The position numbers and the translations under genes are program-made. DNA of 64,000 nt from positions 614 to 64,613 of the forward strand of contig MFJU01000028.1 of NCBI GenBank assembly GCA_001779315.1, written 5' to 3'. Of this stretch, positions 2,990 through 6,884 are shown in pieces; within the stretch, counting starts at the first letter, position 1, and every line of letters starts with the position of its first letter. Under the pieces are notes generated by a model. The model searched no databases and was not told the origin of the DNA. It saw only the letters and a list, made by a program, of their open reading frames with translations. The stretch comes from Candidatus Gottesmanbacteria bacterium RIFCSPLOWO2_01_FULL_42_22. GTDB lineage: Bacteria > Patescibacteriota > Microgenomatia > 2-02-FULL-39-11.

Positions 2990-3159
2990 TCCTTATTTTT
3001 AAAAATTTTTGCGTTTTCTTTTGGTTTGCTGACGCGGAGTAGAGCCGACAGTTTTAGGCGAAACCCCGATAGCAATCGGGGCCGACCTGCCCGCCGTAGC
3101 TAGGCGAAGGCGGGGCTAACGCAAGGCGGAAAAGTAAGTTCGAATTTTTTCGAAAATCA

Positions 3160-3256
3160 CTGCACACAGGGAATCCGCGTTTGAACGGGTATGGAGGCTC
3201 TCCGCGGGTGGGGGCGCGCAGAGCATGGCAAAAGGCTGCCGCAGGGAAACGGAGAG
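3160..3256. repeat. left terminal inverted repeat (~97 bp) of the recombinase unit
   Basis: Its reverse complement matches 4716..4813 with 1 mismatch and 1 single-base indel. Imperfect similarity continues inward to about 3280. Confidence 0.85.
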
Positions 3257-3314
3257 ATGGTCGATTTTTGAAAAGAAGCTCAAAAGAAAACGCAAAAATT
3301 TAAGAGAACTGCTT

Positions 3315-4892
3315 ATGAAATATATTGCTTATTGCAGGAAATCCACAGATGAAAAAGACCGGCAAGTTTTATCCATTGAGGCTCAAATTGCAGAACTTAA
3401 GGAATATGCTCAAAGAGAACATCTGGAAATTGTTGATTTTATAACCGAGAGTAAGACAGCAAAAGAGCCGGGGAGAGGAAAATTTAATGAGCTTTTGAAC
3501 TTAATCGAAAAAGGACGGGCAAACGGGATTGTTTCCTGGCACCCCGACAGACTTGCTAGAAACTCCATAGACGGCGGGAAAATCATTTATCTGATAGATA
3601 CAGGCAAGCTTGTTTCTCTGAAATTCCCTTCTTTCTGGTTTGAGAATACACCGCAAGGCAAATTCATGCTTTCAATTGCGTTCGGACAGAGTAAATATTA
3701 TGTAGATAACCTGTCTGAAAACGTTAAAAGGGGAATAAGGCAAAAACTTCGAAACGGGGTCTGGCCAGGTAAAGCCCCTCTCGGTTACTATAACGATCTA
3801 AAAGTCCATTCAATCTGTATTGATCCGGTCAATTCCAGAATTGTCAAAGCAGCGTTTGAGCTGTTTGTGTCAGGGAATAAGTCATTTACCGATATTGCCA
3901 GGTTTTTATTTTCAAAGGGGATAAAAAGAAAAACCGGAACGATACCACATATCAATCAAATCAGAAATATACTTGCCAATAAGTTTTATGTGGGGATTTT
4001 TTATCATAATGGGGAAATTTATGAAGGAACACATAAGTGTTTTATTTCCAAAGATTTATTCAGAAGAGCGCAGGAGAGATTAAAAAAGCTGGATAGGCCA
4101 CGAAATAAAGGCCATAACTTTCCGTTTGTCGGGATTGCCAGATGTAAGGAGTGCGGGGGAGCTGTAACCGCGGAAATCCATCGAAAATTCTATAAAAGTA
4201 CTAATAGACATGCGGATTATATTTATTACCGCTGTACCAAAAAATTCGGCCAGTGTTCACAAAAATATATTTCCGAAAATAATTTTGAAAAACAATTGAG
4301 AAAAATTATTTTAGATTCCTCTTTGCCATTAAGTTGGGAAAGAAATTGGAGAAAAAGGCTTGCAGATGTGGAGATAGACGAGCAAAAATCGGCACTAACA
4401 AAAATTACTCAATTAAAAGAGGATTATTCAGAGGTGAACACAAAACTTAACCTGCTTCTTGATAGCTTTCTTGACCGGACGATTGAGGCAGAAATATACA
4501 AGTCCAAGAAAAACGAGCTGATGGAGAAACGGATGAGAATTCAGGAGAAAATAGGAGAGATTGAAAAGAACGGCTCCAGTTGGCTCGAACCTATGAGAAA
4601 TTTTATGGATAGCGCCTTGCAGGCGCAAAAAAGCGCGCGGGCTAAAGATAATAACCAAGAATTGGGAATTATTGGTAAAACTGTCGGCTCGAACTTCTTT
4701 TTGGAAAATCGCCGACTCTCCGTTTCCCTGCGGCAGCCTTTTGCCATGCTCTGCGCGCCCCCACCCGCGCAGAGCCTCCATACCCGTTCAAACGCGGATT
4801 CCCCTGTGTGCAGGGCCAGGTGGAGTCGAACCACCATCAAAGGTTTTGGAGACCTCTATTCTGCCATTGAACTATGGCCCTATCGACCTTGA
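3315..4892 (+). CDS. large serine recombinase (resolvase/invertase-type catalytic N-domain, recombinase and coiled-coil regions)
   Basis: N-terminus MKYIAYCRKSTDEKDRQVLSIEAQ matches the large-serine-recombinase motif with the catalytic Ser in YCRKST. The ORF reads through the right IR and tRNA with no stop until 4890..4892, so the real C-terminus is uncertain. An in-frame upstream ATG at 3225 lies inside the IR. Confidence 0.8.
   Translation: MKYIAYCRKSTDEKDRQVLSIEAQIAELKEYAQREHLEIVDFITESKTAKEPGRGKFNELLNLIEKGRANGIVSWHPDRLARNSIDGGKIIYLIDTGKLVSLKFPSFWFENTPQGKFMLSIAFGQSKYYVDNLSENVKRGIRQKLRNGVWPGKAPLGYYNDLKVHSICIDPVNSRIVKAAFELFVSGNKSFTDIARFLFSKGIKRKTGTIPHINQIRNILANKFYVGIFYHNGEIYEGTHKCFISKDLFRRAQERLKKLDRPRNKGHNFPFVGIARCKECGGAVTAEIHRKFYKSTNRHADYIYYRCTKKFGQCSQKYISENNFEKQLRKIILDSSLPLSWERNWRKRLADVEIDEQKSALTKITQLKEDYSEVNTKLNLLLDSFLDRTIEAEIYKSKKNELMEKRMRIQEKIGEIEKNGSSWLEPMRNFMDSALQAQKSARAKDNNQELGIIGKTVGSNFFLENRRLSVSLRQPFAMLCAPPPAQSLHTRSNADSPVCRARWSRTTIKGFGDLYSAIELWPYRP
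4716..4813. repeat. right terminal inverted repeat; its last 3 nt overlap the tRNA-Trp 3' end
   Basis: See the left IR entry. Confidence 0.85.
4811..4881 (-). tRNA. tRNA-Trp (anticodon CCA)
   Basis: Cloverleaf folded by hand on the minus strand: acceptor AGGGCCA/TGGCCCT, D arm GTTC-AATGGCA-GAAT, anticodon arm GAGGT-CTCCAAA-ACCTT, 4-nt variable loop, T arm GGTGG-TTCGACT-CCACC, discriminator G. CCA is not encoded. Close to E. coli tRNA-Trp. Confidence 0.85.
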
Positions 4893-4955
4893 ATTATATC
4901 ACAAAAAACGTCTCTGTCAGTTGAAAAAAAGTAATATCTGTGGTGTCATAATAAT

Positions 4956-6884
4956 ATGTGGCCTTTGATCGCTGCCCTGATCGCCTCGGCCTTGGGCTTC
5001 ACCGCCGGGATGGTAGGCAATAAACCGGCATCTTACAACCGGAATACCTCTGTCCTTTCACCTACCCCATTTTACCGCGCCTGCTATAATCCTGAACCGG
5101 ACCAAATAATTACTTTAAACTGGCCTAACAATTTTATTGATTTGCCTGACCACCGCCGGAATCTACGTCCTGATGTATTCGCTTCCTTTCCGGAAACTTT
5201 TAACTCTATCCAAGATGAGGATGGCGACGGCATTGCCGACTGCAAAGCTTATGTCATGAACAGCAAAACTACGGAAAGCGAAATACCTTCTTTGACGCGT
5301 AATTTTATTAAAGTCAGAAGTGATGTGCGCATCTCAAGCTGCAAGACTGATGAACAGGCGGGACAATATGCCTCCGATTACGACTGCGGCTGGGATCCCA
5401 AACAGTCTCTGCGCGGCAGCTGTTTTATCAAAGAAAATGTCTATCCCCCTTTAAGGAAAATCGCGGAAACGGCAGTCGAGGGAGAAATTAGGGAAATATT
5501 CTGGAATCCCTTCAGTTACAACAACGGCTGTAATTACGAAGAGGGTCATAACTGCGGGCCGGGTGACTGGAATAGCCCAAATCTCAAAGATTTCATTTAT
5601 GTCTTGAAAAGGCGGGATGCCGTTGATAAAACTGAAAAACCGAATTGCCCCTCCCTCTGGGATGCCGGCAGCAGCAATGAATCAGCCTGTTCCCACTACT
5701 TTGATGTTTATCTGGCTGAGGATACTTACCAGGCTATGCAGACAGCCGGCATACCCCAGGATCCGAATGAGAGGATGTATTTCCTCAAAAAAATCCTGGA
5801 AAACTGCCGTGAGCAATCCACGTTTACGCCTTTGCCCGATTCAATGTTGTGGATCCCGCCCTCTTTCATCAGAAAACCATTTCTGCCGCCCTCAATCCAA
5901 AATATGCCGGGAAAAATCAATCCCGTCGCCTCAATAGAAAGAGTCAATTACCAAAGCTATATTTGGAGCAAACCGAATAAGTTTGTCAGCTCAAAAACCA
6001 ATCTTCTCAAATCAACTGAAAGACCGGGCACTCTCAATATATGCCCAGGCAGTTCAAGCAACTGTTATGATCCTATCGGCACAATTGATTTCCGCGATGA
6101 AGACGGAAACAGCGAATCATACCGGGTATATTCGCAAAGGTCGGCTCCGGAAACTTTTGTGCTGGTAAAAATAAGTGACCCCACCATCCTTCACACTTAT
6201 TTTATTACCCAGAAAGACCTGCCTGCCGCAATCGGACACAGGGATCCCTCCCTCCAGCTTAAAAATATGGAATTCCTCAGCCAAAACAGCTGGACTTGGG
6301 CTACCCCCTGGTGCAAACCGGCCATTTACCTCTATCCGGAAAAGGAGACAACACTCACAGTCAAACTCAATTTGGCAGGAGAGTTGACAGCAGATATGCC
6401 TGCCTATGATCCGAACATGGGCTGGCAGGTAAAAGCATCAGCGGATGGCCAACTGATTGTTGATAACAAAATATACCCGTATTTATATTATGAGGCGAAC
6501 ATAAAAGGCAATAAACTGCCTGAAAAAGGCTGGGTGGTCGAAAAGTCAAAAGTCAAAACTTTAATATCAAAAATCTTAGCCGAAATAGGTTTCAATCCAA
6601 AGGAAATCACGGACTTTTCAGAATATTGGCTGCCCAAACTTAAGGAAAAACCCTATTATTTCGTAACTTTTCTGCCGGAAGAAGAAATCAACCTCAAAGA
6701 ACAACTGATTTTTTCCCAAGAACCGGACACTATTATCCGTGCCAGAGTAATTTTTGAGGGATTGGCTGCCCCGTTTTCCGTTACAGAACCTGAAATCCAT
6801 AAAAAGAAAAGGAAAGGATTTACAGTCACTGACTGGGGGGCAACGTTAATCAATCATTCGTGCTCTGATTGGAAAATGGAATAA
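4956..6884 (+). CDS. large secreted or membrane-anchored hypothetical protein (642 aa)
   Basis: N-terminal hydrophobic leader, Cys-containing, no known motifs. Confidence 0.6.
   Translation: MWPLIAALIASALGFTAGMVGNKPASYNRNTSVLSPTPFYRACYNPEPDQIITLNWPNNFIDLPDHRRNLRPDVFASFPETFNSIQDEDGDGIADCKAYVMNSKTTESEIPSLTRNFIKVRSDVRISSCKTDEQAGQYASDYDCGWDPKQSLRGSCFIKENVYPPLRKIAETAVEGEIREIFWNPFSYNNGCNYEEGHNCGPGDWNSPNLKDFIYVLKRRDAVDKTEKPNCPSLWDAGSSNESACSHYFDVYLAEDTYQAMQTAGIPQDPNERMYFLKKILENCREQSTFTPLPDSMLWIPPSFIRKPFLPPSIQNMPGKINPVASIERVNYQSYIWSKPNKFVSSKTNLLKSTERPGTLNICPGSSSNCYDPIGTIDFRDEDGNSESYRVYSQRSAPETFVLVKISDPTILHTYFITQKDLPAAIGHRDPSLQLKNMEFLSQNSWTWATPWCKPAIYLYPEKETTLTVKLNLAGELTADMPAYDPNMGWQVKASADGQLIVDNKIYPYLYYEANIKGNKLPEKGWVVEKSKVKTLISKILAEIGFNPKEITDFSEYWLPKLKEKPYYFVTFLPEEEINLKEQLIFSQEPDTIIRARVIFEGLAAPFSVTEPEIHKKKRKGFTVTDWGATLINHSCSDWKME

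Follow-up and report, generated by a model that had tools for sequence, protein, structure and literature searches.

Serine integrases of the phiC31 type, among them those of phiC31, Bxb1, A118/LI and TP901-1 and the TnpX recombinase, combine Resolvase, Recombinase and zinc ribbon domains and act on attachment (att) sites of ~50 bp with a 2-nt crossover core. Here we describe a locus that resembles them on both counts (the core is GA at one related locus, L113) and that encodes a large serine recombinase (LSR) at positions 3160–4892 of a 64-kb window, by which we mean the entire stretch of 64,000 nt that was analyzed from contig MFJU01000028.1 of Candidatus Gottesmanbacteria bacterium RIFCSPLOWO2_01_FULL_42_22. 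The gene lies between two long inverted repeats, hereafter arms, the right one of which abuts a tRNA-Trp gene. Comparison with assembled metagenome-assembled genomes (MAGs) and metagenome contigs makes it likely that the window holds an integrated small mobile element that is driven by the LSR, targets tRNA 3' ends and carries its attachment site, attP, in duplicate and inside the recombinase open reading frame (ORF). Read in this way, the inverted repeats appear to be two copies of the attachment-site region, not transposon ends.

Several features set the element apart from phiC31-type LSRs. It appears to target the 3' ends of many tRNA genes through the universal T-loop, the P arm of its attP mimics the host half-site, the attP lies within the recombinase ORF and is present twice in inverted orientation, and the smallest units, with ~0.6 kb of cargo that contains no conserved ORF, have no evident recombination directionality factor. 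To our knowledge, targeting of tRNA 3' ends is typical of tyrosine rather than serine integrases, and an attP inside an ORF is paralleled only by the SSV-type (type I) archaeal tyrosine integrases, whose attP is located in the integrase gene and whose integration partitions the ORF. SSV-type integrases share the position of attP within the gene but are tyrosine enzymes, and they split the gene into large N- and C-terminal parts, whereas only ~13 codons would be exchanged here; we know of no spare inverted copy of the 3' end among them.

The Hin, Gin, Cin and Pin invertases likewise pair a serine recombinase gene with a segment bounded by inverted repeats. They are small enzymes with a C-terminal helix-turn-helix, 26-bp sites and a Fis-dependent enhancer, and both orientations of their segments coexist, whereas the element has an LSR of 525 amino acids, arms of ~100 nt of which one is coding, and a single observed orientation. 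The yeast 2-micron plasmid, with FLP targets (FRT) in 599-bp inverted repeats, resembles the putative circular form of the element in having two identical repeats that each contain a recombinase target; in both, the repeats are kept identical and partition the circle into two segments, one of them with the recombinase. It differs in that FLP is a tyrosine recombinase and the circle is a replicating plasmid with an amplification function, and our analysis found no evidence for replication or attP-by-attP inversion of the element. Finally, tRNA-targeting islands, including tycheposons, likewise enter at tRNA 3' ends and leave the tRNA restored; their cargo is variable and, as at loci L030 and L048 here, repeated use of a tRNA leaves fragments of it behind. 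Tycheposons use tyrosine recombinases in 910 of 937 cases and LSRs in the rest (bioRxiv 10.1101/2020.12.28.424599). They duplicate tens of nucleotides of the tRNA as direct repeats, whereas 4–5 nt are shared here and the long repeats of the element are inverted and element-internal.

Recombinase gene, tRNA junction and attachment sites

The LSR ORF encodes 525 amino acids as integrated and runs from the ATG at 3315 to a stop at 4890–4892 on the plus strand. A preliminary description of this DNA, made from the sequence alone, had called it a large serine recombinase and proposed a profile search as a check. The search bore this out, with Pfam matches to Resolvase (PF00239, 4e-23, residues 4–150), Recombinase (PF07508, 2e-13) and Zn_ribbon_recom (PF13408, 3e-8), the last two exceeding curated cut-offs. 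Residues R8 and S10 are invariant in 14 aligned homologs and, with a catalytic resolvase domain, a recombinase domain and a zinc ribbon, the protein passes every domain test for LSRs. Among solved structures it was matched in the catalytic domain only, the remainder being too distant by sequence from any solved LSR.

The arms (3160–3256 and 4716–4813) are 98% identical over 98 aligned columns and differ by one mismatch (C3203 versus G) and one 1-nt indel (GGG at 3169–3171 versus CCCC at 4801–4804). Degenerate similarity extends inward as far as 3281 on the left and 4691 on the right, so that both the ~97-bp near-perfect inverted repeats and the ~25 bp of imperfect similarity described earlier were recovered. 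Searching the window for a 30-nt core of the arm gives exactly two matches, compared with zero expected by chance. We refer to the arm sequence, read in the sense of the tRNA, as X. The left arm (3160–3281, plus strand; 3160–3256 near-perfect, 3257–3281 degenerate) duplicates the LSR 3' end in inverted, non-coding form, and the right arm (4691–4813, X on the minus strand) is the true LSR 3' coding region. The latter meets an intact tRNA-Trp(CCA) gene with a complete acceptor stem (4810/4811–4881, minus strand; detected by ARAGORN and by the Rfam tRNA model at 65.7 bits), whose final 3–4 nt coincide with the arm, an overlap that had been noticed before. The T-loop hexamer GTTCGA of this tRNA is at 4831–4826 on the minus strand, and a promoter-like site precedes the gene (4893–4920, minus strand; CTGACA, 16 nt, TG, TATAAT), identified from consensus matches only, at 11 of 12 positions. 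The LSR is the only real gene between the repeats, as first described, but its ORF runs on through the right arm and the antisense tRNA, with the last ~26 codons consisting of antisense tRNA and flank.

Directly outside the left arm lies a sequence that resembles the T-arm of a tRNA (GTTCGAATTTTTTCGAAAATCA; 3138–3159, plus strand). This pseudo-T-arm would serve as the P-type half-site of attP, and its motif GGTTCGAATTTTTTCGTAAA is conserved outside the left arm in ~40 loci, in the order GC-rich hairpins, GGTTCGAATTTTTTCGTAAA, 3 nt, arm. It is followed by the core CTGCA (3160–3164, plus strand), which equals tRNA nt 71–73 plus C74, contains the crossover dinucleotide and is common to three sites (window 3160–3164, window 4809–4813 and L001 6520–6524). 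These sequences suggest that attP is a ~50-bp site composed of the pseudo-T-arm, a 2-nt crossover within a 4- to 5-nt core that copies tRNA nt 71–74, and the start of X. We interpret site F (pseudo-T-arm, core, X) as an intact, inverted attP copy, of which the left arm is the X half; site D (tRNA, core, X) as attL, in which the tRNA provides the B-type half and the right arm is fused to it at nt 71–74; and site U as attR, bounding a 5.1-kb insertion. Because the arm boundary falls at tRNA nt 71, the discriminator base would be re-supplied by the element.

Site U of the window element is found just before the window start (approximately −166 to −87; L001 6520–6599), 3.3 kb upstream of the left arm, and is the reverse complement of window 3085–3164, with 50 nt at 100% identity, including CTGCA, and a further 30 nt at 90%. 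Inverted copies of the pseudo-T-arm and core of this kind are present in at least 11 loci (0.6–3.8 kb upstream, 70–97 nt, 89–100% identity); no third site was detected within 1.5 kb upstream of the left arm in 19 loci. In ten other loci the core spans 4 nt or more, and in L113 it could be resolved to the 2-nt GA. As judged from sequence comparison, short sites with a 2-bp core, flanked on either side by T-loop-type motifs within ~25 bp, fit what would be expected of a serine integrase. Spacing differs between the partners: the distance from the end of the GTTCGA hexamer to the arm boundary is 16 nt in 32 of 42 attP copies versus 12 nt in 33 of 42 tRNA junctions, which places the hexamer 4 nt further from the core in the pseudo-T-arm than in the tRNA T-loop. 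This 4-bp outward displacement parallels the 5-bp shift described for LI integrase, where the motif for the zinc ribbon domain is 5 bp nearer the centre in attB than in attP (Rutherford et al. 2013, PMC3783163). The X side carries an inverted T-loop-like motif with attB-like spacing. A palindromic crossover core was considered as a source of inverted products and rejected, as most cores (TCAC, CGAC, CAGC) have no palindromic dinucleotide at a fixed offset.

The coding capacity of the right arm was examined in loci drawn from a set of 80 that encode relatives 53–62% identical to the LSR, from different Patescibacteria MAGs. The LSR frame is free of stop codons through the right arm in 34 of 34 loci, while other frames often have stops, and it encodes a conserved peptide (..GSNFFLxxR(R/Q)LSxxYKKGF(A/D)xL, followed by a variable segment and SLSV); codons of this peptide, read as their reverse complement, account for the conserved nucleotide motif GCAAAGCCCTTTTTGAA. 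The open frame and the conserved product together indicate that the right arm is LSR coding sequence. Past the core, integrated LSR ORFs translate antisense tRNA in frames that differ between loci, yielding tails of 2–120 residues. When each right arm was instead joined in silico to the reverse complement of its own pseudo-T-arm, as at an excision junction, an in-frame tail (x(V/L)Y(E/K)K(I/V/C)RTxF(K/R)..) was restored in 39 of 40 loci, with a stop 10–19 codons on. Restoration of a conserved tail and stop indicates that attP lies in the LSR frame, ~13 codons ahead of the stop, and suggests that integration replaces the tail; since the joined ORF continues in frame into this tail, the pseudo-T-arm doubles as coding sequence for YEKIRT.

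In the window, the minus strand of the pseudo-T-arm encodes the LSR tail ..VIFEKIRTY.., and an antisense ORF over site F (3116–3295, minus strand) forms a complete spare C-terminal end of the LSR with its own stop (..LSVSLRQPFAMLCAPPPAESLHTRSNADSLCAVIFEKIRTYFSALR, also given as ..NADSLCAVIFEKIRTYFSALR), which fits the tail consensus of the 39 of 40 loci. The restored type of tail is present in ~8% of the top database homologs, among the matches listed, and in 0 of 71 complete chromosomal LSR ORFs from the 80 loci. In L120 and L121, where the LSR is full-length and tailed, the left region recurs in full and in inverted orientation after the gene; L119 instead has another site of the pseudo-T-arm type downstream. 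The overlap with the tRNA also affects annotation, causing pipelines to drop the gene: JGI and NCBI gene calls on identical DNA omit the recombinase, and where it is annotated its final ~26 residues are translated antisense tRNA. LSRs of this kind are thus mishandled, being either lost or given C termini that are antisense-tRNA artefacts.

The mobile unit extends from site U to the tRNA junction D and not from arm to arm, as judged from L033 versus L055, a nested insertion in L113 and a locus that lacks the block. The stretch common to L033 and L055 runs exactly from U to D, with unrelated flanks on both sides. In L113, a complete unit (U, cargo, F, LSR, D; 3512–6509) splits another LSR gene between codons ..FMLS and IAFGQ.., and a comparison of its three sites leaves only GA in common. 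L109, from a related strain whose neighbouring 642-amino-acid protein is 88% identical, is without the entire 5.1-kb block, comprising ORFs of 240, 145 and 200 amino acids and the LSR, and has the order CopG, tRNA-Trp, 642-amino-acid gene; the left breakpoint of this comparison falls at a CTGCA core. The three cargo ORFs of the window are on the minus strand between 466 and 2624 (240 amino acids, 466–1188; 145 amino acids, 1517–1954; 200 amino acids, 2022–2624) and gene finders call an additional ORF of 38 amino acids. The three larger ORFs are without Pfam matches, and no candidate recombination directionality factor was recognised among the cargo.

A simple series of events would account for these arrangements. 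The un-integrated element would carry the LSR flanked by two long inverted attP regions, and the recombinase would read the universal T-loop motif GTTCGA in both partners, with crossover at tRNA nt 72–73. Target choice would fall on tRNAs whose last bases match the core of the element, which then re-supplies the discriminator base. In the window copy, the downstream attP would have recombined with tRNA-Trp: its X half would have remained beside the gene as the right arm, now fused to the tRNA, its pseudo-T-arm half would have ended up 3.3 kb upstream, at the opposite end of the element and just beyond the window start, and antisense tRNA would have taken the place of the last LSR codons. The upstream attP copy would have been left intact, its X half being the left arm. 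Integration via the downstream copy would lead to the common state seen in the window, and integration via the upstream copy to a rare same-direction state. The latter matches L019, L068, L076 and one of the two elements in L119, where a real tRNA is joined to X and then to the LSR start, all in the same direction, which suggests that the upstream copy has been active over evolutionary time. Candidate roles for the second attP include a spare site, a switch that restores the ORF by inversion, and autoregulation or transcriptional insulation.

Several observations weigh against an element of this kind. L109 is not a clean empty site, as it contains, over 735–900, a different complete tRNA-Trp with its own TATAAT box and, beside the shared promoter, an 18-nt 5' fragment of the window-type tRNA-Trp. 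Scans of metagenome contigs returned no precise empty site, excised circle or flipped form of the window copy; the empty sites proposed as a check in the preliminary description were therefore not recovered, the exact predicted junction having 0 matches and L109 being the only locus noted without the block. The sites also do not fit the canonical scheme of attP, attB, attL and attR simply, given that the X half-site is spaced like attB and not like attP. Were both attP copies equivalent, the ~20:1 excess of one integration mode could be explained only with a further assumption, such as selection or survivorship; the convergent state may predominate because tail-less, quiescent insertions are the ones that survive. 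The copy in the window may be inert, since each of its arms has a private mutation (the left one breaks a hairpin stem and the right one, an additional G, would frameshift the restored LSR tail) and no polymorphism was seen. Finally, recombination was not seen directly, and the case is built entirely by comparative inference from assembled sequences.

An extension of this scheme, which we put forward only tentatively and hold to be rather improbable, is that an attP in the recombinase ORF acts as a built-in state sensor and directionality control that needs no separate directionality factor. The full-length enzyme with the YEKIRTxF tail would then be made only from the excised form or from the rare integrant at the upstream attP, and integration via the downstream attP would swap the tail for arbitrary antisense-tRNA residues, changing or silencing the enzyme and locking the element in. 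The inverted spare attP and 3' end upstream of the gene would allow a rare inversion between the identical arms to restore a full-length gene downstream of the tRNA promoter and so make the element mobile again. As the pseudo-T-arm is a mimic of the tRNA half-site, excision would proceed by a reaction of the same type as integration.

Related loci in other Patescibacteria

The architecture of arms, LSR and tRNA recurs well beyond the window, answering an earlier call for a search for further copies. In 60 of the 80 loci the LSR is flanked by arms that are 50 nt or longer and at least 90% identical, and 36 of these pairs match perfectly. In 43 loci a convergent tRNA shares its 3' end with the right arm and, as at the window tRNA-Trp, the tRNAs at these junctions are intact. 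They represent ten species (Gln, Glu, Pro, Lys, Val, Trp, Leu, Gly, Ile and Asp), so the association with tRNA 3' ends that was first noted at a single gene holds across related units. The orientation bias across loci is explained by att-site polarity. The arms measure 97–126 nt, many contigs terminate exactly at an arm, and some MAGs contain several copies per genome, at different tRNAs. Closely related units were found at tRNA-Glu, tRNA-Lys and tRNA-Val in different hosts, which argues that X is element DNA and not a native tRNA trailer.

Divergence between the arms of different loci is strong, also for copies that share a genome. For loci of one family, arm identity is 100% within a locus versus 73–92% between loci, a difference that indicates concerted evolution. 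Gene conversion, which is expected to act faster than mutation on repeats of 100 nt, would keep the arms identical. The preliminary description had attributed their near-identity to recent origin or ongoing gene conversion; this was partly right, to which we add that the arms evolve in concert.

At least 7,900 LSR homologs at ~60% identity were present among the matches listed, and the element is a member of a highly abundant family of Candidate Phyla Radiation (CPR) bacteria that is apparently undescribed. Full-text literature searches returned no description, for serine integrases, of T-loop recognition by a tRNA-mimicking attP arm, of an attP in the ORF or of a second inverted attP. A single-sequence scan of viral contigs found no relatives, and a profile scan found five, none with a circular form. 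Some CPR genomes of only ~1 Mb carry several copies, and the family is probably a major driver of insertion, tRNA-gene rearrangement and assembly breaks in Patescibacteria MAGs. Serine integrases are also prized in genome engineering, and this family would offer thousands of natural variants, each apparently tuned to a 2- to 4-nt core beside a universal motif.

Other explanations for the inverted arms

The explanation that survives best after an integrated element with duplicated attP is an active invertible switch, in which the gene is flipped through recombination of the two arms, mediated by the LSR or by RecA. A flip would re-fuse the ORF to the spare left tail and place the gene behind the strong tRNA promoter (ON), and the window would represent an OFF or locked state. 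Several features are consistent with this: the left copy has a complete in-frame tail and stop on the minus strand, 36 loci have arms with 100% identity and the arms show concerted evolution, a strong promoter-like site directs tRNA transcription toward the arm, loci with tRNA, X and LSR in the same direction exist (L019, L068, L076 and the first element of L119, L119a), and contig breaks exactly at arms are common. The population data point the other way. The LSR protein is annotated in Candidatus Gottesmanbacteria GW2011_GWC2_42_8, and the same gene order and orientation was found in 22 of 23 contigs with the exact LSR protein, the remaining one differing downstream, and in 24 of 24 contigs with the upstream neighbour gene. 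These 46 locus-spanning contigs, from many samples and all in a single orientation, are the sum of overlapping sets read by gene look-up, and a set based on the downstream neighbour overlaps them as well. Ten contigs aligned base by base over the locus are almost identical, as are nine more over the 2.3-kb interval between the 200- and 642-amino-acid genes, and these ten and nine contigs display no heterogeneity in orientation or sequence. The flipped junction had 0 matches in the metagenome contig scan. Furthermore, the restored tail is absent from all 71 complete genomic LSR ORFs, the additional G in the right arm of the window copy would spoil the restored frame, and the same-direction loci are equally explained by integration via the upstream attP. 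The Hin/Gin-like invertible segment suggested in the preliminary description is therefore unsupported by the data, and we consider a switch of this kind unlikely.

Less probable still is a role mainly at the level of RNA or transcription, in which a hairpin in X terminates or stabilises transcripts that enter the LSR gene from either side. Such transcripts would come from the tRNA on one strand and from a pseudo-tRNA leader on the other, and the inverted copy would act as an insulator or leader instead of a recombination site. X does lie downstream of a tRNA or tRNA-like module in the same sense on both strands, and a T-run follows the hairpin in many families (GCAAAGCCCTTTTTG). The GC-rich hairpin, which sits midway along X and in the right arm at 4742–4769 (plus strand), is kept by compensatory changes despite a variable peptide: 71.6% of cells were paired, compared to 57% in shuffles and 28–48% in slid controls, and double changes were observed in 49 versus 18 cells, although the hairpin used in this covariation test was specified by us and not predicted. 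In contrast, Rfam finds only the tRNA at gathering score and otherwise chance-level matches (E up to 5), fold z-scores of −0.4 and −1.3 are not significant, and RNAalifold predicts no consensus structure for the aligned arms. The T-run motif is accounted for by the YKKGFA codons, window X has no T-run after its hairpin and the left copy has a stem-breaking mismatch. An RNA role would have no need of 100% DNA identity, and real tRNAs have recombined at the core of the left copy.

A minimal insertion sequence (IS)-like transposon, also suggested in the preliminary description, with the arms as terminal inverted repeats and the recombinase as transposase, would account for one gene between long inverted repeats and for multiple copies near different tRNAs in some MAGs, but is highly improbable, because conserved element sequence runs ~250–500 nt beyond the left arm, insertion boundaries in L113, in L033 versus L055 and in the window versus L109 fall at U and D, the right arm codes for protein and target-site duplications around the arms are absent. 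The arms are not the ends of the unit, which extends beyond them with three to four further ORFs, and the two real ends, U and D, are not inverted repeats of each other. The three sites share only the 4- to 5-nt core, a pattern expected of conservative site-specific recombination.

Conserved motifs, nested insertions and tRNA rearrangements

The left region contains further conserved features, all given on the plus strand. It starts with interleaved inverted repeats in the order a1 b1 a2 b2 (2903–2987), which have the same layout with compensatory changes in L012, L016 and L018 and recur downstream of the full-length LSRs in L120 and L121. The pairs could form mutually exclusive hairpins, the second followed by a T-run, in an attenuator-like arrangement. 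Motif A (AAATTTTTGCGTTTTCTTTTG; 3003–3023) is the perfect inverted partner of motif A' (..AAAACGCAAAAATTT; 3281–3301), and the pair is conserved in other families. A' immediately precedes the LSR start and is found in nearly all loci, even where LSR and tRNA have the same direction. The motif at this position, AAAACGCAAAAAT(T), precedes the LSR start codon by 14–35 nt in nearly all families, with its inverted partner ~260–300 nt upstream; the two bracket the whole attP copy and could be an operator or promoter element. Motif B (GAGCCGACAGTTTTA; 3042–3056) is T-loop-like, is an inverted copy of the LSR codons ..KTVGS.. at 4676–4690 and is conserved as GTTCGAGCCGACAGTTTT in 33 aligned left regions. 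Segment S (3057–3137), between motif B and the pseudo-T-arm, forms GC-rich hairpins, and its part 3085–3137 is duplicated in inverted orientation in site U.

Proteins of ~900 amino acids that look like double recombinases (protein P0003, L113 3151–7682; clusters P0002–P0017) would each represent one LSR element inserted in the LSR gene of another. In L113, the first ORF continues across its arm into the second gene, and a T-loop-like TTTGGA lies 12 nt from the GA core. With sixteen such protein clusters among the top hits, LSR genes appear to be a recurrent secondary target. In two IMG/VR contigs classed as viral, of 33 kb and 17 kb, N-terminal LSR fragments (L116 60–410 and L117 4–354) end near residue 116 (..TPQGKF|) and are followed by unrelated DNA; a different, phage-sized element may also use this spot in LSR genes.

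Traces of apparent earlier events were seen at several tRNAs. Beside site U of the window element, a 69-nt segment between two TGCAG cores (L001 6451–6519, ~235–167 nt before the window start) begins X-like (AAGAAATTGC) and ends as a degenerate pseudo-T-arm, and looks like a collapsed older element at the same tRNA. The tRNA fragment in L109 may be the scar of an earlier element with a real tRNA in place of the pseudo-T-arm. In L030 (5507–5579) and L048 (5500–5565), an arm is joined to a 3' tRNA fragment right after an intact tRNA, a signature of repeated integration. L076 (5400–5600) contains a palindrome with no recombinase (pseudo-T-arm, core, start of X and hairpin, then the same in reverse) that resembles a miniature inverted-repeat transposable element with its arms fused at the hairpin. 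In Shapirobacteria, the host flank running from tRNA-Glu(TTC) to tRNA-Lys is on opposite sides of the recombinase cassette in L065 compared with L068 and L076, and in L068 the cassette sits between two real tRNA-Glu genes. These arrangements are evidence that the att sites probably mediate rearrangements between tRNA genes.

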